From a virus (lineage: Duplodnaviria > Heunggongvirae > Uroviricota > Caudoviricetes), in the IMG/VR virus record IMGVR_UViG_2869947659_000003, positions 1 to 11,813 of that record: a stretch of 11,813 nucleotides of DNA; one strand, written 5' to 3'. The notes under the pieces were generated by a model. The model saw only the letters and a list, made by a program, of their open reading frames with translations, did no database searches and was not told the origin of the DNA. Both the position numbers and the translations under genes were made by a program. Positions 1 to 11,813 of the stretch are shown piece by piece (position 1 is the stretch's first letter; every line of letters starts with the position of its first letter).

Positions 1-819
1 TTAAGCAGCCATCTGATGATATTTTTCCCTGAAGGCTGCCGGGGAGATATTCCCCAGACGAGAGTGACGACGCTGACGATTGTAGAAAATCTCAATGTAT
101 TCCCGTATTACTGAGATGGCTTCATCCCGGTTATTAAAACGATAGTGGCTCAGGCTCTCATTTTTCAGCGTTCCCCAGAAGCTTTCCATCGGAGCGTTGT
201 CGTAACAGTGACCTTTACGCGACATTGATGTTTTCAGACCAGACTGCTCCTGTATGACCCGGTAATCGTATGCGCAGTACTGTGAACCTCGATCAGAGTG
301 GTGGATTAGCCCGGCAGGTGGGCGCTGGCTCCTGAGCGCCATAAACAGGGCTTTACCTGTCAGCTCTTTTGTCATGCGCTCTCCCATGGCGTAGCCGACA
401 ATTTCGCACGTATAAACATCTTTGATGCCAGCGAGGTACAACCATCCCTCCTGTGTGGCAACATACGTCAGGTCCGCCACCCAGACCTGATTTGGTGCTG
501 TAGGAGCGAACGTCTGGTTCAGCAGATTTGGCGCAACTGGCAGATTGTGGTTCGGGTTCGTAGTCGCTCTGAACTTGCGTTTCTGCTTACAGCGTAGCCT
601 TAGCTCCTTACGAAGACGTGCCAGTCGGTCACGACCAACGATGATGCCATTCTCTGCCAGCTCCGTCTGGAGCCGCCGGGTTCCATATGTTTCGCGAGTG
701 CGGATATGTGCCACCTTAATCTCCAGTTTTAGCCGCTCATCACTTTGTTTTCTGTCTGAGGGTTCATGCTGTACCCAGTTGTAATAACCGCTCCTGGATA
801 CACCAAATACCTGACACAT
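1..819 (-). CDS. IS3-family transposase OrfB (DDE/integrase catalytic core), probably made as an OrfAB fusion by -1 frameshift
   Basis: 272-aa ORF with rve-like motifs (HSDRGSQYCAYDY, KGHCYDNAPMESFWGTLK, FYNRQRRHSRLGNISP). Stop codon sits at window positions 1-3. The ATG at 819 is probably not the biological start. Confidence 0.9.
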   Translation of the reverse strand: MCQVFGVSRSGYYNWVQHEPSDRKQSDERLKLEIKVAHIRTRETYGTRRLQTELAENGIIVGRDRLARLRKELRLRCKQKRKFRATTNPNHNLPVAPNLLNQTFAPTAPNQVWVADLTYVATQEGWLYLAGIKDVYTCEIVGYAMGERMTKELTGKALFMALRSQRPPAGLIHHSDRGSQYCAYDYRVIQEQSGLKTSMSRKGHCYDNAPMESFWGTLKNESLSHYRFNNRDEAISVIREYIEIFYNRQRRHSRLGNISPAAFREKYHQMAA

Positions 820-854: not shown

Positions 855-1157
855 TTAACGCGTATTTTTCAGCGACTCCTGTGCAAAATACGCTGTTGCT
901 TTTTTTAATATATCTCGCTCAAGGCGAGCTTCATTTAACGCCTTACGCAGTTGCAGAATTTCAGATTCCAGTTCAGCCACCGTGCGGGAACCAGGAGTAC
1001 CGAGCCCTTTTCTGGCGGCGGTAACCCATTGTCCTAAAGTGCCTTCAGGAAGGGATAATCGGGAAGCGCCTTCACTGATCGAAAGTTGATTTTCAAGAAC
1101 CGTTCTGACAGCTTCGGCTTTGAACTCTTTAGAGTAACGTTGGTTTTTTCTGCTCAT
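855..1157 (-). CDS. IS3-family transposase OrfA (helix-turn-helix DNA-binding subunit)
   Basis: 100-aa ORF directly upstream of OrfB; N-terminal HTH-like region and C-terminal leucine-zipper-like segment (LESEILQLRKALNEARLERDILKKATAYFA) typical of IS3 OrfA. Confidence 0.85.
   Translation of the reverse strand: MSRKNQRYSKEFKAEAVRTVLENQLSISEGASRLSLPEGTLGQWVTAARKGLGTPGSRTVAELESEILQLRKALNEARLERDILKKATAYFAQESLKNTR
897..908 (-). other. Putative programmed -1 ribosomal frameshift site (A-rich slippery run) near the 3' end of orfA
   Basis: Minus-strand mRNA reads GAT ATA TTA AAA AAA GCA at the codons for ILKKA; the IS3 family typically uses an A AAA AAG-type heptamer here. Not experimentally supported. 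Confidence 0.5.
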
Positions 1158-1564: not shown

Positions 1565-1640
1565 GTGTCGTCGGGTCCTTCCTGGAATTATGGCCCGTTA
1601 CGGGGCGGCGACCTCGCGGTTTTTCGCTATTTATGAGCTT
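1565..1640 (+). other. Lambda-type cos site, copy 1 (cosQ-like ACGGGTCC-type segment plus cosN; 12-nt cohesive-end sequence GGGCGGCGACCT at 1603..1614)
   Basis: Sequence CGGGTCCTTCCTGG...GTTACGGGGCGGCGACCTCGCGGTTTTTCGCTATTTATGAGC closely matches the lambda genome termini as I recall them (right end ...ACGGGTCCTTTCCGG...GTTACG, left end GGGCGGCGACCTCGCGGGTTTTCGCTATTTATGAAAA). Confidence 0.8.
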
Positions 1641-2339: not shown

Positions 2340-2400
2340 TCATAAATAGCGAAAACCCGCGAGGTCGCCGCCCCGTAACGGCTCCATATGCCGGAAAGGA
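2340..2400 (-). other. Lambda-type cos site, copy 2 (cosQ-cosN; cohesive-end sequence reverse-complemented at 2362..2373), correctly oriented for the Nu1-like gene
   Basis: Minus strand reads ACGGGTCCTTTCCGGCATATGGAGCCGTTACG GGGCGGCGACCT CGCGGGTTTTCGCTATTTATGACG, near-identical to lambda cosQ/cosN. Confidence 0.85.
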
Positions 2401-4470: not shown

Positions 4471-4498
4471 AGTAAGAAATTCCTCTTTGACTTAAAAA

Positions 4499-4555
4499 AT
4501 CATAACTGGATGTTCATCCAGTTATGATTATAATCATGATCGCATTTTGTGCAAT
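4499..4555 (-). promoter_or_regulatory. Sigma70-like promoter for the capsid-like operon overlapped by a 30-bp perfect palindrome (candidate operator)
   Basis: Minus strand -35 TTGCAC (4549..4554), 16-bp spacer, -10 TATAAT (4527..4532). Palindrome ATCATAACTGGATG tt CATCCAGTTATGAT at 4499..4528 covers the predicted transcription start. Confidence 0.5.
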
Positions 4556-4633
4556 GATATTGAGTTGCGTTGCAAATTATGAAATGATTATCCCGATCAT
4601 GTGTGTCAGTGCACCAAAAAACCTCATATGCAA

Positions 4634-4672
4634 AAGCCCGATAACCCACCTCTGACCTTATCGGGCTTTTTT
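4634..4672 (+). terminator. Hairpin terminator (10-bp stem AGCCCGATAA / TTATCGGGCT, 13-nt loop, T-run)
   Basis: Seen directly; followed by TTTTTTAT on the plus strand. A weaker U-run follows on the minus strand, so it may act in both directions. Confidence 0.5.
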
Positions 4673-4770
4673 ATCTGCCTGCAAAGATGTTGAACAAAAA
4701 TTAACCACAACCATCATCTTTTTTGCATCAAAACAATTAAAAACAATAAATTACGCTCATGATGATGATG

Positions 4771-4847
4771 ACGATAAAATCACAAAAATGCGCTTTTTTC
4801 CGCGCCTCCCGCCCCGTGTTCAGGCCCACCCCGCCAGGAGGACCCGT
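4771..4847 (-). other. Degenerate third cos-like element (diverged duplicate of cos copy 2)
   Basis: Plus-strand 4771..4869 aligns with 2341..2430 over about 100 bp (…CCGCCCCGT…GGACCCGTAAAAAAGCCGGATTGCTCCGGC). The cohesive-end core is not intact (GGGCGGGAGG instead of GGGCGGCGACCT). Confidence 0.55.
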
Positions 4848-4869
4848 AAAAAAGCCGGATTGCTCCGGC
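4848..4869 (-). terminator. Rho-independent terminator downstream of ssb
   Basis: Stem GCCGGA / TCCGGC with loop, followed on the minus strand by six U residues; near-identical to the terminator at 2406..2430. Confidence 0.7.
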
Positions 4870-4885
4870 TTCTGTCACTCGTCGC

Positions 4886-5308
4886 TTAAAACGGTATGTT
4901 ATCCCCGTACGGATCATCATTCCCCGCCTGTTGTTTTGCCCTGTTCAGCGCGTCAGTAGCCTGGCCCTGTTGACCTTTTTTGCCGCCCAGTCGCGCCGTT
5001 CGCGCACTGATTACACTGTCTGCGATAACCTGCCAGCCCTGCCGCGTTTCCCCGTTCTGTCCGGTCCACTGGCTGACCTGCATCGTGCCGGATACGCTGG
5101 CAACGTCGCCTTTTTGATGTTTAGCCAGGAAGTCGGCCTGCTTACCAAATGCGATGACCGATAGCCATAACGTCGCCTGCCCATCCTGCGCCTGACTACA
5201 TGGCAACGATACCGCCATACGCGCCAGCGTCATCGGTGTGCCCTTGCTGGTCTGTTTTACCTGCGGGTCGTCCACCAGCCGCCCGTAAGCGGCTATCTGT
5301 GCTGTCAT
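4886..5308 (-). CDS. ssb: Single-stranded DNA-binding protein (SSB-like OB-fold protein with acidic C-terminal tail)
   Basis: OB-fold-like core (TLWLSVIAFGKQADFLAKHQKGDVASVSGTMQVSQWTGQNGETRQGWQVIADSV) resembling the E. coli SSB core, and a C-terminal tail ending DDPYGDNIPF (compare the SSB DDDIPF tip). Start overlaps the stop of the upstream ORF (ATGA). Confidence 0.7.
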   Translation of the reverse strand: MTAQIAAYGRLVDDPQVKQTSKGTPMTLARMAVSLPCSQAQDGQATLWLSVIAFGKQADFLAKHQKGDVASVSGTMQVSQWTGQNGETRQGWQVIADSVISARTARLGGKKGQQGQATDALNRAKQQAGNDDPYGDNIPF

Positions 5309-5562
5309 AATTCCACCTCTCCGGTTTTAACGTTGATGGTTGTTACCTGTTCCGCTTCGGCAATCTCCCGCTCTGTCAGCGTGGCAAAGTTTGCCGCTGC
5401 TGTGGTCATGAATGCGCTTATCAGGTCGGGATGTGCTTTCGCGTATCCTTCCCCCGTGTTGCGGTCGATGATTTTTATCGCCACTCTCAGCCAGTGCTCT
5501 GTAAGGTCAATGGCGCGGTTATGCTGCTTCTTCTGATTATTAAGTTTTCCTGATGTGCGCAT
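5305..5562 (-). CDS. Hypothetical protein, 85 aa, translationally coupled to ssb
   Basis: ORF with ATGA overlap to ssb. No recognisable family. Confidence 0.5.
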   Translation of the reverse strand: MRTSGKLNNQKKQHNRAIDLTEHWLRVAIKIIDRNTGEGYAKAHPDLISAFMTTAAANFATLTEREIAEAEQVTTINVKTGEVEL

Positions 5563-5610
5563 TTTTATTTTTACCCCCTCGTTTAAAAAGTTTTGAGTTG
5601 TGCCTCCCCT

Positions 5611-5837
5611 TGTCTACCTTATCTACCTTACTGGCTCTCATGCCAGTAATGGCGCGGCTTTCAGCGGGGTAGAGTGCTTTTATCCACTATCTACCCCGTA
5701 TCTACCTCCCTGTCTGATTCAGGTAAAATCAGGTAGAGAGGGTAGATAGTAGGTAGACAGTGAAAAAAGGCTGTCTACCTAAGTTAATATACTGAATTAA
5801 ATGTATTTTTCTTTACTCAGGTAGACAGGGTAGACAG
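5611..5837. repeat. Iteron array (candidate replication origin) with a DnaA-box-like site
   Basis: At least 11 copies of TCTACC / GGTAGA-containing 8-9-mers in both orientations (for example TGTCTACC 5611, TATCTACC 5620 and 5688, GGTAGAGAG 5732, GGTAGATAG 5741, GGTAGACAG 5752, 5820 and 5829, CTGTCTACC 5771). TTATCCACT at 5680..5688 is an 8/9 match to the DnaA box. Lies immediately 3' of the primase gene. Confidence 0.7.
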
Positions 5838-5850
5838 CCATTGCAAAAAA

Positions 5851-7599
5851 TTATAAAAACGCGTCGCAATCGTCTGTTGTTATTGCGTTAGTCTGCGTTA
5901 CTCCCTTAACTTTCCGCGTAATATATTCATGTCCGTAAACTTTCGCGGCTGGCTTCATAGCCTTGCCAAAGTCATTTACGTTTAGCGGTTTGCTCCTGCC
6001 TGCGTATGCCATAAACGCCAGATAGACGCGGTAAAGGCTGTTTCTGGTCGTGTACTTCACTGAATCGCCACCGCCACCCATCATCAGGCCGCGCGCTTCC
6101 TCCAGAAAATTCAGGAACTGGCAAAACTCAATAACCGGATCCGTCTGTTGCTTTATTGCCAGAGCTTCATCACCGTCACGCTGTTCCAGTAGTAAAGCCC
6201 GTGCCTTCTCAGGGTCGGTAAAGTTCGCCAGCAAGCGGCGGATAATGACAGGGATTTCAGCCGCGATCTTTTCCGGTAGCTCCCTGTCTTTTTCTGCCTC
6301 GCTTACGATATTGTCGAAGCGGAAAATAACCCGACGACGTGACACGCCTCCGGCCCGTTCGGTGAATATCATCGGGTTGTTATTGGTCGCCAGCACCACC
6401 GCCCTGATTACCGTAGTGAAACGCTTTTCATATTTCGGGTTGATTTCCACGGGGTCGCCGCCCGTGATTTTCTTGATGCCCGTGCCTTCGCCTGTATATT
6501 TCGGCTGGTCTGCCAGGACGATAAGACGACTCCCGACAACCTGCGCACGCCCACCAGCATCATCAAGCGATGTCATTTCCGCGCTTACCGTGTTTTGTTT
6601 CCCCGCTAAAAGGCTGGCGATGTGGGTGAATGTACTTTTGCCGCTCCCGCCGTCTCCGGTGGCCTCAATAAACATCTGCCAGTCGTACCGGTTCGCCATA
6701 ATCATGTACAGCGCGGCACATATACGCATCATCTTGCGCTGGTCTTTTCCAGCTGCGTGATCAAGCCATTTATGAAAGTTTGGCGCGTTATCGCGGATGT
6801 TCTCCCCAGGTGCTGGTGGCGTGTACTCAATGCCGTTGTGCGTGGTGATCCAGTTCTCCGGCGTGTGCGGGGAAAATTCCCCCGTTTTCAGGTCAAGCGC
6901 ACCATTGGCGAACGGCAGCAAATCGCCGGACGGCTCCCCCATTGGTTCGGCAATAACTTTTAACGCTTCAACGGCGTTATTGATCACGCGTTTGCTGAAA
7001 GTGGCCCTGTGCTCTGAATAGATCGCCACCATTTCGCGGCTCAGCTCCATTGTGCTGATCGGACACCATACCCCGCCGCGCCATACGTGAACGATTTCAC
7101 TTTCCGGATGCACACAAACGCCATCAAAGCGCTCGGCAAGCAGCTGCGCGCGCTCACTGTCTGCCATTTGTGCCAGTTGCGTATTTTTCTGCTCCGGCAT
7201 GGTAAGCCCTGCGGCAATATTTTCACGCTCAGCATTCAGATAGCGCCGCCAGTTTTCACACTTCTGGACGTGCATTCCTTCGGGGTAAAAATTTGCGTCC
7301 TGAATATCTGCCGCCGCCAGCTTCTGACCAATCTTTTTGGTCTCCACTAAATCCAGTTCTCCGGCCTGGTACAGCCTTACGCGCTTTTTCCCATCCGGAA
7401 CAATTTTCAGCGCATCAAGTTCGGCAAGCTGATTTGGCCCAAGCCACACAGGCGGCACATTATCGCCGGATGCGGGGCCATCCTGCTCCTGCCATTGTTT
7501 CGCGTGCGACCAGGCATCACTACCCGCGAAAATAATTACCTCTGTGTCTTTGTGTTTTATTCCGCGTGGCTGTTTTTTTACGTTCGGTGCCAGTTTCAT
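5851..7599 (-). CDS. P4-family primase/helicase (alpha-like replication protein; D5-type SF3 helicase with Walker A)
   Basis: 582-aa ORF with Walker A EATGDGGSGKST and a downstream Walker B-like LIVLAD segment; overall resemblance to the P4 alpha / phage-plasmid primase C-terminal region. Coupled by ATGA overlap to the upstream small ORF. Confidence 0.88.
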   Translation of the reverse strand: MKLAPNVKKQPRGIKHKDTEVIIFAGSDAWSHAKQWQEQDGPASGDNVPPVWLGPNQLAELDALKIVPDGKKRVRLYQAGELDLVETKKIGQKLAAADIQDANFYPEGMHVQKCENWRRYLNAERENIAAGLTMPEQKNTQLAQMADSERAQLLAERFDGVCVHPESEIVHVWRGGVWCPISTMELSREMVAIYSEHRATFSKRVINNAVEALKVIAEPMGEPSGDLLPFANGALDLKTGEFSPHTPENWITTHNGIEYTPPAPGENIRDNAPNFHKWLDHAAGKDQRKMMRICAALYMIMANRYDWQMFIEATGDGGSGKSTFTHIASLLAGKQNTVSAEMTSLDDAGGRAQVVGSRLIVLADQPKYTGEGTGIKKITGGDPVEINPKYEKRFTTVIRAVVLATNNNPMIFTERAGGVSRRRVIFRFDNIVSEAEKDRELPEKIAAEIPVIIRRLLANFTDPEKARALLLEQRDGDEALAIKQQTDPVIEFCQFLNFLEEARGLMMGGGGDSVKYTTRNSLYRVYLAFMAYAGRSKPLNVNDFGKAMKPAAKVYGHEYITRKVKGVTQTNAITTDDCDAFL

Positions 7600-7895
7600 T
7601 TTTTACCCCTGAATACGTTAAGCATCTTTTTTATTTCCTGAATATTGGCGCGTGCTTTCTCCCTGCTGGTTGGTTTACTGCGGGGCGCTGCCTGTACCAG
7701 AGAAAAATCACGCCGAAACTGATAAACAGGCATCACGCAATCATATTCGTAGCCTTCACGACGGTAGGTGATGCGCCGTTCTGCCACGCCTTTAATCGTT
7801 ACCATGCCGCCATATTTATCGCGGTAAATATCGCCGTTCATAAATTCAGGACGAGCGGGGCCGCTGGCAGTAACGCCAGAATTTTTATTTTTCAT
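7596..7895 (-). CDS. Hypothetical protein, 99 aa, translationally coupled to the primase
   Basis: ORF; stop overlaps the primase ATG. No recognisable family. Confidence 0.6.
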   Translation of the reverse strand: MKNKNSGVTASGPARPEFMNGDIYRDKYGGMVTIKGVAERRITYRREGYEYDCVMPVYQFRRDFSLVQAAPRSKPTSREKARANIQEIKKMLNVFRGKK

Positions 7896-8405: not shown

Positions 8406-8571
8406 CGCTCAGGAATACGCAGACCTCACCGCTAAGGCGTTTAAGTAAGCCGATGATTGCCCCTGATTCGCTGTCGGTCATCATGCCAGGGTAATCCTCT
8501 GCCAGTGCGCAAATAACTTCGATTTGGTGGGCGCGTTCTGCTGCCTGTTGTAGTGTGATTTCCTGACTCAT
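8341..8571 (-). CDS. Hypothetical protein, 76 aa
   Basis: ORF whose ATG overlaps the stop of the upstream 66-aa ORF (ATGA at 8568..8571). Confidence 0.5.
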   Translation of the reverse strand: MSQEITLQQAAERAHQIEVICALAEDYPGMMTDSESGAIIGLLKRLSGEVCVFLSDEQERRTLISNEKKCGGVHVQ

Positions 8572-8768
8572 AAGCCTACCCCCTGACGAATACGGGCGGC
8601 GAATACCATCACGCAGCCATCAGGAGATTGCTGGCGTGCTTCCTGTTCGCTGGTGGCCACGATGTGAATCACGCGCGGTTGTGCGGTGCTCAGGGCGATA
8701 AAACGCCAGATGTATTTATTCAGGTTGTACGAGTCCCGCCCTTGCGGGTGTATGGTATAATTTCTCAT
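8568..8768 (-). CDS. Hypothetical small protein, 66 aa (possibly Icd-like); first gene of the replication operon
   Basis: Sub-ORF MRNYTIHPQGRDSYNLNKYIWRFIALSTAQPRVIHIVATSEQEARQQSPDGCVMVFAARIRQGVGL, taken from the C-terminal end of the 469-aa track ORF, with a GAGG RBS. Its WRF...PRV..I.A.SE.EAR...FAAR pattern resembles what I recall of Icd-like proteins in P4-like prophages; tentative. Confidence 0.45.
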   Translation of the reverse strand: MRNYTIHPQGRDSYNLNKYIWRFIALSTAQPRVIHIVATSEQEARQQSPDGCVMVFAARIRQGVGL

Positions 8769-8859
8769 AGCTGCCTCGATAATCTTGCTATCGTTGGTGG
8801 TTAGAAGCCCCGTTACTGCTCCTACAGTGCGGGGTTTCGTCGTTTCTGCACCTTGCATT

Positions 8860-8945
8860 AACAAGGTGTAAGTAACTTTATTTATAGGTGGCTTACATGT
8901 CAATGCTTTTATGTAAGACTTTTTATGTGTATATTGTCTTACACT
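8860..8945. promoter_or_regulatory. Divergent promoter/operator region with four TGTAAG / CTTACA half-sites
   Basis: TGTAAG at 8867 and 8912, CTTACA at 8892 and 8938; CTTACAT-N12-ATGTAAG forms an inverted repeat. Sits between the plus-strand RHH-like gene and the minus-strand replication operon. Confidence 0.45.
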
Positions 8946-8964
8946 TTCATTGAGAGGATTACAG

Positions 8965-9270
8965 ATGGCTACAGGTTCAAAAAACGCAAAATCACAATCA
9001 CTGACAGCTCGGATCCCGCATGATGTTATTGAAGGCATGGAATCCGTAAAACTGGACGGTGAAAGCAACGCCGGATTCATAGTAACCGCCATGCGCGGTG
9101 AAATCGCCCGCCGCCAGGCAGAAGGAAGCAGAGAAAACCCCCTGATTTCTTCGCTCGATGCACTGGCGCAGGTGGAAAAACTCGGAATCAAAGCCGCCGA
9201 GGAGATCGGGCAGCTCGTCACTGTCGCACGTGAAGAACTCCAGCGCCGCAAGACCAAAGAACCAGAGTAA
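8965..9270 (+). CDS. Probable ribbon-helix-helix (CopG/Arc-like) DNA-binding protein, about 101 aa
   Basis: Strong RBS AGAGGA 6 nt before the ATG at 8965 (the track ORF begins at TTG 8950). N-terminus LTARIPHDVIEGMESVKLDGESNAGFIVTAMRGEIARR fits a beta-strand/helix/helix RHH pattern. Fold assignment is by pattern, not by search. Confidence 0.55.
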   Translation: MATGSKNAKSQSLTARIPHDVIEGMESVKLDGESNAGFIVTAMRGEIARRQAEGSRENPLISSLDALAQVEKLGIKAAEEIGQLVTVAREELQRRKTKEPE

Positions 9271-9327
9271 TCACCATCAGCGCCGTGGTGTAAGGTATTA
9301 CGGCGCATTGCTATGCAGGACAACACA

Positions 9328-9501
9328 ATGACCGATAAAGAATTGACCAAAACATTATCACCGGCACGGAAAAGACGGCGCAGAAAGATAGAGCATGAAT
9401 CAGAAAGATTCGCGCCATGTGCTTTTGCCCTTGAGCAATTCCTTAAAGAGTACAGGGAAAAGCGCTCATTGCAGGTATGGCAACGAACTGAACCAGACTG
9501 A
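9328..9501 (+). CDS. Small basic protein, about 57 aa (the track ORF begins at the upstream ATG 9313)
   Basis: AGGA 7 nt upstream of ATG 9328; N-terminal KRRRRK cluster; followed by a plus-strand terminator. Confidence 0.45.
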   Translation: MTDKELTKTLSPARKRRRRKIEHESERFAPCAFALEQFLKEYREKRSLQVWQRTEPD

Positions 9502-9577
9502 TTGCATTGCCCACCAGCCGCAAATGTGGCATTGTTGGCAATGCTCATGCGTTGGGGATAACGTGTAGCTTGTGTCG

Positions 9578-9609
9578 AGGGGCCACCGTAGCGGGTGGCC
9601 TTTGTTTTG
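9578..9609 (+). terminator. Rho-independent terminator ending the plus-strand cassette
   Basis: Stem GGCCACC / GGTGGCC with loop GTAGCG, followed by TTTGTTTTG. Confidence 0.6.
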
Positions 9610-9612
9610 CCC

Positions 9613-9977
9613 GTTATTCGGCAATTGTGGCGCTTCTCCACATGGTTGATATAATCCCACTGCTCAGATTCATTTTTTGCGCAGTAGGTTAATTGTTCAC
9701 AAAGGCGCTCCGGCAACGGGGCGCTTTTTGTTTTTATTAGTTTGTAGAAACCTGACTCAGAGATAATGCTCATATTCTGATTGCCGTCAGGGGTGTAAGT
9801 TAAATTTACTCCCTTTTTATCATCAAACATCTGCAACACTCTGGCGTTAACAATATTGGTTTCACTCCCGCCAGTAAGGCCGGAAATAACCGGAATACTT
9901 TCGGCAAAATTTTGCAGATTCTGTTTTTCAGGACGAACGAAGCCCCGCCCTTGTTCGGGAGAATATCCAGTATTCAT
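9613..9977 (-). pseudogene. Possible 5' remnant of a gene downstream of alpA (N-terminal ~120 codons of the 469-aa track ORF); extent uncertain
   Basis: The N-terminal part (MNTGYSPEQGRGFVRPEKQ...EQWDYINHVEKRHNC) has protein-like composition. The rest of the 469-aa frame runs antisense through the plus-strand genes and is Ser/Cys/Arg-rich, so it is probably not a real protein. No in-frame stop exists until 8568. Confidence 0.3.
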
Positions 9978-10029: not shown

Positions 10030-10218
10030 TTAGTGAACTGCCTCGCAGCTGTCCTTCCATGCCAGAACTTCGGATAAAGACCAGCCAACGGAACGACCGC
10101 CCAGCTTACGCCGTGATGGGAATTGTCCGGCTTTTTCCAGGCGGTACCGACATGAGCGGCTCAGGCCTGTAAGTTGCTGACATTCTTTTTCACGTATAAA
10201 GCGATCTGTGCTTAACAC
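10030..10218 (-). CDS. alpA: AlpA/Vis-like winged-helix regulator (prophage excisionase / transcriptional activator family)
   Basis: 62-aa protein resembling CP4-57 AlpA and P4 Vis-type proteins in size, composition and position next to a P4-type integrase. Start is GTG at 10218 with AAGGGGGA upstream. Confidence 0.8.
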   Translation of the reverse strand: MLSTDRFIREKECQQLTGLSRSCRYRLEKAGQFPSRRKLGGRSVGWSLSEVLAWKDSCEAVH

Positions 10219-10583: not shown

Positions 10584-11813
10584 TTATATTTCTCTGGCTA
10601 TTGGCAATGTGGTTACGTTTTCATGTGTTCCCGCCAGTATCCCTAACCGCTCCGTCCACATATCCAGCGCGTCACGTTTCGCATCCAGATAACGGGAATG
10701 GTTATAGACTCGTTGCATCCCTGGCATCTGATGACCTGTAAGCTGCTCCACGACGTGAGGATCCACGCCTAAATCGTTCAGCATCGTTGTAAAGGTGCGC
10801 CGGATGTCATGCAGTGACCAGTGAGGGTGTTTTAGCCTCCTGTGCGCTAATCTACCGTACTGCGACACGCTTGTTTCCTGTTTCACTTCCCCCAGCAATA
10901 AGCCCGTGTGCCTGTTCTGCTCCACCAGCTGCGTGACGAACGGTAGTATTGCTTCCGGTATGGGCCGGAATATTGCCACCTTCGTTTTGCTGTGTTCTTT
11001 CGGCACGGTCCAGAGCATTTCGGTAAAATCCCACTCGCTGATCTCCGATAACCTCAGTTCTACCGTCCGGCATCCGAAAACAATCAGGAGGCGGATTAGT
11101 GCGACGTAGTAAGGGGAAAATATTTTTTTGTCCAGTGCCTGCAATAATTCGCCAAGTTCTTTGGTGCTTAAGACACGCTCGCTTATATCCGGTTTTTTCC
11201 TAACGTCCGCCACACTCATATCATCAAGAACGTTGCTGATTGCATAGCGCCGCCTCCGGCAGAACTTAAGCGCCTGTTTGCACGTCTGTAGCAAGAATCC
11301 GGCAGTAACAGGCGTTCGCTTTGCCACCTGGTCAAAACAGGCCAGCCAGTGCCGTAGCTCGCATTTATCCAGCGGCATAGCACCAATGTGCTGTATTACG
11401 TGATTATTAAGGCGCTTTTTCAGGGCGGCATAATCCACGCGGTTTTCCTTTGCGTACGACTCAAGCCAGTAGGTGAGCGCATCGCCAACCGTTACCGGCT
11501 TTAACGCTTCCTGTACGGTGTAATTAAGCTCATGACGTGGATTTTTCCCCTCTGCCAGCCATGCGCGACACTGGGCGGCTTTTTCCCTGGCTGATTTCAG
11601 GCTCAGATCAGGATAATTTCCCAGCTTAATGCGTTCCGGTGGTGCCCCCCTTCCCGTTCCGGCCCTGTAAGTGAAATACCAGGTTAAAAGGCCACTGGTT
11701 GAATGCCTGACGCTCAGGTTTCCACCGTCATTAAGAAAGGCTGTTTTTTGGGCGGGTGTGCCGTTGATTTTCCTCAGCTGTGTATCGCTCAGTTTGTTAA
11801 GTGCTCTGCTCAT
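10584..11813 (-). CDS. int: P4-type tyrosine integrase (site-specific recombinase)
   Basis: 409-aa ORF with N-terminal arm-binding-like region and C-terminal catalytic motifs (HDIRRT, GHQ, RVYNHSRYL with the catalytic Tyr). The ATG is at the window edge; alignment with the P4 Int N-terminus suggests this is close to the true start. Confidence 0.93.
   Translation of the reverse strand: MSRALNKLSDTQLRKINGTPAQKTAFLNDGGNLSVRHSTSGLLTWYFTYRAGTGRGAPPERIKLGNYPDLSLKSAREKAAQCRAWLAEGKNPRHELNYTVQEALKPVTVGDALTYWLESYAKENRVDYAALKKRLNNHVIQHIGAMPLDKCELRHWLACFDQVAKRTPVTAGFLLQTCKQALKFCRRRRYAISNVLDDMSVADVRKKPDISERVLSTKELGELLQALDKKIFSPYYVALIRLLIVFGCRTVELRLSEISEWDFTEMLWTVPKEHSKTKVAIFRPIPEAILPFVTQLVEQNRHTGLLLGEVKQETSVSQYGRLAHRRLKHPHWSLHDIRRTFTTMLNDLGVDPHVVEQLTGHQMPGMQRVYNHSRYLDAKRDALDMWTERLGILAGTHENVTTLPIAREI

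Follow-up and report, generated by a model that had tools for sequence, protein, structure and literature searches.

A bacterial-type single-stranded DNA-binding protein encoded behind the predicted origin of a PICI-type satellite, and its small overlapping neighbor

[quoted passage not shown] A first-pass annotation described the protein as an SSB with a modified C-terminal tail, coupled to an upstream 85-aa protein, and proposed that it could either support island replication or sequester host factors. In particular, three problems follow from this description: 1) Whether the protein is a genuine SSB, and in which respects it departs from that of the host. 2) Whether its genomic setting points to replication or to interference with other elements. 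3) Whether the small upstream protein belongs with it functionally. We considered these problems in the window, by which we mean the entire stretch of 11,813 nucleotides that was analyzed, and in related loci. Both open reading frames were found on the minus strand as described (Table 1), with the product of the second ending in DDPYGDNIPF, and the observation of an SSB gene with its upstream neighbor is confirmed as real and far beyond chance.

Table 1. Positions of the island features discussed, numbered along the window
Feature	Position	Strand	Description
Tyrosine integrase	10584-11813	(-)	
AlpA	10030-10218	(-)	Small genes lie between AlpA and DUF4222
DUF4222	7596-7895	(-)	
pri-rep	5851..7599	(-)	582 aa, P4-type SF3 helicase/initiator; Pfam D5_N, DUF5906, Pox_D5; TIGR01613
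Island replication origin (predicted)	5563..5850	.	288-bp gap from the pri stop to the start of the 85-aa gene
85-aa conserved gene (PHROG 1231)	5305..5562	(-)	Predicted helical hairpin; core ID..xGEGYAKxHP[ED]LISAFMTTAA
Shine-Dalgarno-like GGAGAGGTGG for ssb	5313..5322	(-)	4 nt upstream of the ATG, within the last codons of the 85-aa gene
ATGA stop/start overlap, 85-aa gene to ssb	5305..5308	(-)	Read from the sequence; signature of translational coupling
ssb	4886..5308	(-)	140-aa OB-fold single-stranded DNA-binding protein (Pfam, TIGR, AlphaFold2, Foldseek); OB domain ~1-102, short basic linker 103-130, tip DDPYGDNIPF
Codons of the tip DDPYGDNIPF	4889..4918	(-)	SSB-Ct-like partner-docking motif (predicted); family consensus DDP[YFW]GD[NDGE]IPF
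Terminator-like hairpin GAAGCCGGA-GCAA-UCCGGCUU, then U run	4846..4873	(-)	13 nt past the ssb stop

The SSB assignment was borne out by profile searches, which recovered the Pfam SSB family PF00436 over residues 5–99 (60.6 bits, gathering score 26; E 1.7e-16), the NCBIfam model TIGR00621 (59.7 bits; cutoff 53.95) and PHROG 44, "single strand DNA binding protein" (2.3e-39). The sequence matched 26 solved SSB structures, the best being the Thermotoga SSB (1z9f, 9e-11), with the E. coli SSB (1eqq) recovered at 1e-6. An AlphaFold2 model computed with 47 relatives predicts a five-strand OB fold with one helix for residues 1–102 (block-mean pLDDT 82–93), followed by a C-terminal tail that is disordered or of low confidence and includes a weak helix at 117–127. 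When this model was compared with the PDB by Foldseek, the top 50 matches listed were all bacterial SSBs, with target-normalized TM-scores of 0.60–0.79. Identity to the E. coli SSB, for which we used a reference sequence identical to PDB 1eqq_A, is 26% over the OB domain. The E. coli protein stacks single-stranded DNA against four aromatic residues, W40, W54, F60 and W88, and three of these four are found in the island SSB, where W48, F54 and W81 align to W54, F60 and W88 and are invariant across the 47 relatives. The position of W40 is occupied by Cys37, which is nearly invariant among the same relatives, and that of H55 by Leu49. Across relatives the ssb gene shows dN/dS values of 0.05–0.27, indicative of purifying selection. 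We conclude that the island encodes a real SSB of the bacterial type, divergent in sequence but otherwise ordinary.

The C-terminal tail was examined in the best 120 cluster representatives, 117 of which end in Phe, and residues were counted in those 117. Reading inward from the C-terminus, they have F at -1 (117), P at -2 (115), I at -3 (113), D at -5 (116), G at -6 (102), an aromatic residue at -7 (Y 103, F 9, W 5), P at -8 (110), and D at both -9 (110) and -10 (111); position -4, with N in 46, D in 41, G in 18 and E in 11, varies more than any other among the last ten. Thus the Asn of the island protein, which terminates in NDDPYGDNIPF, is not a family trait; the trait of the family is DDP[YFW]GDxIPF. 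In E. coli SSB the C-terminal tip is the docking site for DnaG, the chi subunit of Pol III, PriA, RecQ, ExoI and others. With positions -1, -2, -3, -5 and -7 nearly invariant, these docking elements are retained in the island family. Alignment from the C-terminus with the host sequence MDFDDDIPF leads to the same picture: the description of the tail as modified is correct as far as the letters go, but it was overstated, because the two sequences share the IPF tip, D(-5) and an aromatic residue at -7, and the Asn falls on the most variable position.

The difference from the host SSB is greater in the short basic linker and the isoelectric point than in the letters of the tip. Linker and tail together comprise 38 residues with a net charge of +1.8 and a G+P+Q fraction of 0.34, as against 66 residues, -3.2 and 0.58 in E. 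coli SSB, and the pI of the whole protein is 9.2 versus 5.4. The long, net-acidic linker rich in Gly, Pro and Gln that is found in the SSB family is accordingly absent, which is a variant feature and not one that excludes the protein from the family. The C-terminal region contains a conserved ATDALNRAKQQ segment, and the linker region of ssb is mosaic between islands: proteins of the EDL933 type combine the OB domain of the window's SSB with another linker (…GGNRRKTTGTQGNQPPAGGDDPYGDGIPF), and the tip is unchanged despite such swaps. In light of the short basic linker and the high pI, the oligomeric state, binding mode and partner range of the island SSB may differ from those of the host protein; these features, like the replacement of W40 by Cys and of H55 by Leu, weigh against the replication role proposed below.

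The genomic context of ssb was then considered at the level of its junctions. The plus-strand letters at 5305–5308, tcat, read ATGA on the coding strand, so that the ssb start overlaps the stop of the 85-aa ORF; this overlap is kept in all 13 of the pair loci examined, and the earlier proposal that the upstream gene of no known function is set up for translational coupling is upheld by it. The CCGGAGAG core of the Shine-Dalgarno-like element was present at every junction examined, including those of islands that are devoid of the 85-aa gene. On the other side of ssb, the hairpin at 4846–4873 has a GC stem and a predicted folding energy of -24 kcal/mol (z -2.6). It was absent from the list of the consensus scanner, probably because extension of the stem consumed part of the T run, and it is therefore treated here as a likely terminator, a function that we infer; as such it likely closes the early/replication transcription unit. 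As a consensus scan of the coding strand detected no promoter within the origin that could serve the pair, we assume that transcription reads through from pri. No Rfam family was matched in the window at gathering score.

The window represents one Gram-negative PICI-type satellite lying on the minus strand, with int, AlpA, DUF4222 and Pri all in that orientation. PICIs are recognized by a unidirectional layout, a size of about 10–20 kb, phage-like late genes and cos site(s). In comparisons with solved structures, pri-rep recovered only 7ola, covering the SF3 helicase region, and 1ka8, a P4-alpha-type C-terminal origin-binding domain; neither this comparison nor Pfam detected a primase catalytic domain in it. 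The predicted origin contains 11 TCTACC/GGTAGA iteron cores, arranged as two opposed sets around an AT-rich stretch, and its repeats comprise the families D1–D3 together with inverted pairs, with the GC fraction falling to 0.34–0.38 at 5700–5850. The same iteron layout is seen in mapped E. coli PICI origins (PMC6092414). Beyond ssb in gene order, a 415-bp AT-rich gap is followed by a 68-aa gene and then by a lambda gpE-like capsid gene, a gpD-like decoration gene and a gene of 137 aa whose product is similar to the C-terminal part of head proteases; a gene for a Nu1-like HTH protein, a 93-aa gene and an IS3-family element come last. The island contains two exact lambda cosN 12-mers. A 469-aa ORF at 8568–9977 is a maximal-ORF artefact, as gene callers give a product of 170 aa there. 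Judged by this layout (int – alpA – pri/rep – iteron origin, phage-like late genes and cos), the island is classified as a Gram-negative PICI, and the SSB gene accordingly sits on a satellite, as had been proposed.

A chromosomal counterpart is found in CP026766.1 (locus L019), in which the called genes occur in the window's order with matching product lengths, and in which the island spans ~10.7 kb between roxA and an IS adjoining phoQ. Between the window integrase and its counterpart in the cf-PICI EcCIEDL933, identity is 98.8%. We also considered whether the island might be embedded in a helper, and rejected this: it has its own site adjoining roxA and an EcCIEDL933-type integrase, whereas its close relative L001 lies inside a prophage terminase gene. 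Helper-dependent induction, replication and packaging have been demonstrated by experiments only on relatives, namely EcCICFT073, EcCIEDL933 and 11capE (PMC6092414, PMC10111431, bioRxiv 10.1101/2022.09.08.507074).

The exact SSB sequence is present in many assemblies, and of 5426 complete E. coli genomes, 1682 have a match to the 677-bp region encoding the pair, 873 of them over at least 80% of its length. PICI-encoded SSBs occur in roughly one in three such genomes. Of 40 matching records taken as a spread sample, 35 listed the SSB together with the small gene under the match, and the RefSeq labels of the pair are "single-stranded DNA-binding protein | hypothetical protein". Carriers of the pair include E. 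coli O157:H7 EDL933 (in EcCIEDL933), NRG 857C (in the helper-embedded PICI 11capE) and ATCC 25922. Outside Escherichia and Shigella, named hits come from Salmonella and Citrobacter, along with E. albertii and islands of Leclercia, and a plasmid collection yielded copies of lower identity from Klebsiella, Enterobacter, Serratia and Sodalis. The order replication gene – origin – pair is the same in 13 related loci, which differ in their replication protein (P4-type, DUF927 or RepA) and in their late module (lambda-E capsid, HK97 set, PerC or ProQ/FinO); the islands of E. albertii and Leclercia likewise have their SSB gene behind a replication gene and iterons. Among 50,697 deposited phage genomes no close homolog of the SSB was detected, the best match having 32% identity, and for the 85-aa gene deposited phage genomes gave no homolog at all. 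The absence of a close phage relative therefore indicates that the SSB clade is borne by satellites and was not recently acquired from a helper that has been sequenced.

We know of no experimental test of any PICI-encoded SSB. The experimental PICI papers PMC6092414, PMC6739421 and bioRxiv 10.1101/2022.09.08.507074 contain no mention of SSB in their text. In a paper of 2023 (PMC10111431), SSB is placed in the "Replication" category of both Gram-negative PICIs and helper-embedded PICIs, and grouped with Primase and DUF5906 as replication genes that colocalize with mapped origins. An SSB at this island position is thus already annotated and published, and the view that a dedicated SSB on a satellite is notable does not hold up against the abundance of genomic matches, the RefSeq annotation and this listing. 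We found no earlier description of three details, namely the linker that is short and basic, the DDPYGDxIPF motif, and the coupling to a PHROG 1231 gene.

Taken together, these observations make it probable that the island SSB belongs to the PICI replication module, acting as an accessory protein that coats DNA at the origin and recruits host partners through its IPF tip. The pair begins directly after the iteron origin, which in turn follows pri, and this position of ssb favors replication over the sequestering of host factors. The proposed sequence of events would be as follows: 1) ssb would share the transcript of the early operon, in which int, alpA, DUF4222 and pri all run in one direction, by read-through across the iteron origin, and would be translated by coupling to the 85-aa gene that directly precedes and overlaps it. 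2) Upon induction by a helper phage, the SF3 helicase/initiator of the island would open the origin. 3) The single strands thereby exposed would be coated by the OB fold of the island SSB, for which the predicted fold and the retained stacking aromatics speak. 4) The …DDPYGDxIPF-COOH tip may dock in the pockets of DnaG primase, Pol III chi, PriA, RecQ and others that receive the host tip, as suggested by the established role of the C-terminal tip in E. coli SSB. 5) Such docking would bring host priming and polymerase functions to island DNA, and recruitment of priming would matter because the island Pri has no recognizable primase domain.

In the case of EcCICFT073, pri and the origin alone maintain a plasmid (PMC6092414), so an island SSB is not needed for initiation. 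Since pri and the origin suffice there, and since some related islands (L016) have no SSB, its role must be an accessory one; the protein would serve as a boost, or as insurance when host SSB becomes limiting during helper and island replication, and would not be essential.

A separate issue is whether the 85-aa protein shares in this role. It is matched by phrog_1231 (3.2e-48; residues 6–84 on profile positions 4–82 of 83), a family without assigned function, and had no Pfam, NCBIfam or PADLOC match. The AlphaFold2 model (121 sequences) predicts two helices, at 6–36 and 45–81, with a block-mean pLDDT >90 for residues 21–60. A fold-based function was sought and not obtained: the structure search found no PDB neighbor, and the matches in BFVD were weak and all to uncharacterized phage proteins. 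The gene is under purifying selection (dN/dS 0.10–0.42 across relatives). Its close relatives form 162 clusters, nearly all from Escherichia or Shigella, and a HMMER scan of 1.84 billion representatives gave 171 relatives at E <= 1e-3, while a profile search gave 376 clusters at E <= 1e-5. The wider "GEGYAKxHPEL" family comprises proteins of 60–130 aa from diverse bacteria and metagenomes, which have the core ID..FGEGYAKxHPELxAAFMxTAA in common with the 85-aa protein, and for this family no Pfam model, name, or solved or annotated structural relative was found; a Pfam search with 89 distant members likewise gave nothing.

One reading is that the two genes are functionally unrelated neighbors, with the overlap being a result of compact operon packing and the 85-aa protein doing something else, such as acting as a small regulator or an anti-host factor. 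We hold this to be a strong possibility, just short of probable. The pairing is frequent but not obligate, as the 85-aa protein usually, not always, travels with the island SSB: SSB occurs without the small gene in L015, L002 and L003–L006, among them the APEC37, E. albertii and Leclercia islands, and the small gene occurs without SSB in L016 / ZH48. Distant members of the 85-aa family are found in early regions or at the edges of prophages, and in one case between CoA-transferase genes, and no fixed SSB neighbor was seen in the loci inspected. Against this stand the adjacency of the two genes in most Escherichia matches and the conservation of the ATGA overlap wherever the pair was examined.

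Two more specific roles for the small protein were considered and rejected. An iteron-specific origin factor is contradicted by near-identical cores beside four unrelated iteron types (TCTACC, TAACCCGCA, AGTGGGGA, TGTTCACC), and by one TAACCCGCA-iteron island that has no 85-aa gene. Co-adaptation of its N-terminus with the replication protein was suggested by six loci and contradicted by 14, in which both N-terminal types occur with P4-type as well as with DUF927/RepA proteins. As the core is the same at four iteron types and the N-terminal type tracks neither the iterons nor the Rep protein, origin-specific and Rep-specific roles are rejected; the same lack of correlation is compatible with the two genes being unrelated neighbors.

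A different alternative concerns the SSB itself, namely that it acts as a decoy or interfering factor, with its IPF tip titrating SSB-interacting proteins of the host, or with the protein occupying the single-stranded DNA intermediates of the helper in Red recombination, rolling-circle replication and RecA loading, such that the helper is slowed or SOS is tuned in favor of the island. A conserved tip joined to a linker and charge unlike those of the host SSB would suit a competitor for partner binding that acts differently on DNA, and the gene is dispensable in some islands. Strong interference with lambda is also seen for classical E. coli PICIs, and as of 2018 the genes behind it had not been found among the capsid and decoration homologs, the genes deleted in EcCICFT073, c1499 and c1500, being such homologs and not the SSB pair (PMC6092414). 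However, the fixed place of ssb after pri and the origin, across unrelated late modules, points to replication; the interference by EcCICFT073 was later studied as packaging redirection, in a paper in which a term search finds no SSB (PMC6739421); and EcCIEDL933, which carries the same pair, does not block its helpers (bioRxiv 10.1101/2022.09.08.507074), an observation that weakens the decoy reading in particular. We regard it as unlikely.

A role in replication could also be extended to a satellite-specific module of two proteins, the helical-hairpin protein and the SSB, that partitions replication resources. The small protein might bind the ATDALNRAKQQ linker, the IPF tip or the SSB interactome of the host, and parts of the host replisome might thereby be steered to island DNA and away from helper DNA. 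The conserved ATGA coupling and the satellite-only distribution are compatible with such a module, which would, if real, be a previously undescribed route by which a satellite partitions replication resources; we nevertheless judge it distinctly unlikely.

Finally, an interplay with anti-phage defense, in which the satellite SSB would shield the single-stranded DNA of the island from SSB-monitoring systems such as Retron-Eco8, Hna, Hachiman, Nhi and AbpAB, or be sensed by them, with the variable -4 position and the swapped linkers as traces of an arms race, is plausible in principle and without support here, and we consider it very improbable: foreign SSBs do trigger several defense systems where the host SSB does not (PMC13402713, PMC13381803), and the linker mosaic and the variability of the tail at -4 would fit, but neither protein has a PADLOC match (PADLOC-DB, E <= 0.01), the two trigger SSBs studied in these papers were that of T7 and that of phage 5A, the latter predicted to be T7 gp2.5-like, and not of the bacterial tetramer type (PMC13402713, PMC13381803), dN/dS is low overall with no diversifying selection seen at the gene level, and the neighbors are replication and capsid genes and not defense cargo. 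Since foreign SSBs act as such triggers, a host-resident satellite SSB could serve as a useful natural test case.

The finding confirms a routine annotation and places ssb in the known replication module of PICIs, and as such it matters little. It does delineate an SSB clade in which the IPF tip is like that of the host while the linker is unusually short and basic, and which is usually accompanied by a small conserved protein of a widespread, entirely unannotated family.

Comparison with known systems brings these similarities and differences together. The SSB of E. coli (P0AGE0; 1EQQ/1EYG) belongs to the same Pfam and TIGR family and has the same OB fold as the island SSB, and both have a disordered C-terminal region that ends in an acidic …D-x-I-P-F tip with an aromatic residue at -7. 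They differ in the tip letters (GDNIPF in the island protein, DDDIPF in that of E. coli), and in the linker, which in the island protein is basic, contains little Gly, Pro and Gln, and has roughly half the length. Bacterial-type SSBs of temperate phages, such as Pseudomonas phage F116 and Staphylococcus phage StB20-like, are similar over the full length, including the C-terminal tail, at an identity of only ~29–32%. F-type conjugative plasmids carry an ssb gene in their leading region, a case of a bacterial-type SSB on a mobile element that presumably supplements the host pool while single-stranded DNA is exposed. The setting of these plasmid genes (oriT-proximal, with psiB/ardA) differs from that of the window island, which is chromosomal and has ssb in a pri–origin context, and plasmids hardly ever carry the island SSB clade, with matches at E <= 1e-8 in 25 of 72,556 records; two of the E. 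coli plasmids listed, 171 and 187 kb in size, have the match annotated as "single-stranded DNA-binding protein | hypothetical protein".

The nearest known systems are two PICIs, 11capE (Eco567.11capE of NRG 857C; PMC10111431), whose SSB is 78% identical to that of the window, and EcCIEDL933 of EDL933, for which the figure is 84%. In both, ssb also lies after pri and the origin and has the same 4-nt overlap with a small upstream gene. In the window island, an integrase of the EcCIEDL933 type is found together with a P4-type Pri and lambda-E/D capsid genes, in place of a DUF927 protein and an HK97 module. Neither its linker and motif nor its coupling to PHROG 1231 sets the SSB apart as part of a novel type of system, and the SSB of the window island differs in nothing of kind from those of 11capE and EcCIEDL933.

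The mosaicism of these islands reaches into the ssb gene itself, as is apparent from a comparison of the window's copy (4886-5308) with the EDL933 version of the gene (L014, 6895-7305), in which the encoded OB domain is nearly identical to that of the window and the linker is unrelated. In another related locus, L018, an SSB identical to the window's is located behind a RepA-type helicase, and a recombination junction lies inside the 85-aa gene. The N-terminal 125-160 residues of the replication protein Pri share 62-68% identity with their counterparts in islands whose replication protein is for the rest of its length DUF927 or a RepA-type helicase. This region, taken here as residues 1 to about 140 (window 7180-7599) and compared with L014, L016 (which has the 85-aa gene without an SSB) and L015 (which has the converse arrangement), matches PHROG 2850 and no Pfam family. 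It looks like a portable domain, with no role assigned, that has been joined to differing helicases.

A further gene lies downstream of the SSB gene in islands of E. albertii, Leclercia and some E. coli; one such gene is annotated as ProQ/FinO-related, and two others resemble this family by eye only. The Leclercia SSB ends in YDDLPPF rather than in IPF. An SSB-tip-like C-terminus, YPEDLPF, is also seen in P0312, a distant relative of the 85-aa protein with 149 residues, a lone example that may have arisen by chance.

The AT-rich gap of 415 bp between ssb and the capsid operon (4471-4885) contains a perfect palindrome, a promoter-like site and a second hairpin, and may constitute a control region for the late operon. 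A 469-aa ORF elsewhere in the window (8568-9977, minus strand) gave no family matches; it is the maximal reading frame over a stretch in which the genes called are one of 170 aa and small ones on the opposite strand, and is probably not a genuine 469-aa protein.

Coordinates of the features discussed in the text
Feature	Sequence	Position	Strand	Remarks
Lambda cohesive-end 12-mer GGGCGGCGACCT, copy 1	window	1603-1614	+	exact match
Lambda cohesive-end 12-mer GGGCGGCGACCT, copy 2	window	2362-2373	-	exact match
IS3-family orfA	window	855-1157		HTH_Tnp_1
IS3-family orfB	window	1-819		rve
Palindrome AATCATAACTGGATG/CATCCAGTTATGATT	window	4498-4529		perfect, 14-bp arms; ssb-capsid gap
Promoter-like site	window	4583-4554	-	ssb-capsid gap
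Second hairpin	window	near 4633-4675		ssb-capsid gap
Gene 3' of SSB	L025	2448-2915		annotated 'ProQ/FINO family protein'
Gene 3' of SSB	L002	7462-7998		178-aa ORF; ProQ/FinO-like by eye only
Gene 3' of SSB	L005	7453-7938		161-aa ORF; ProQ/FinO-like by eye only

Among E. coli relatives, the one nearest to this region is L001 (NZ_CP123335.1 2820667-2837967), a helper-embedded PICI that lies within the gene for the large terminase subunit of a prophage, whereas the window's own island adjoins roxA; the integrases of the two are only 23% identical. An IS3-family element (1-1157) directly adjoins the late end of the island, the right attachment site of which may have been disturbed; in locus L019 (CP026766.1) phoQ is the next gene beyond this element. 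The 12-nt lambda cohesive-end sequence occurs twice without mismatch, and these copies, mutually opposite in orientation, bracket the gene for a Nu1-like HTH protein of 146 residues (1832-2272), a candidate for an Rpp-type packaging redirector, and this opposed pair is reminiscent of the cos1/cos2 pair of EcCICFT073.
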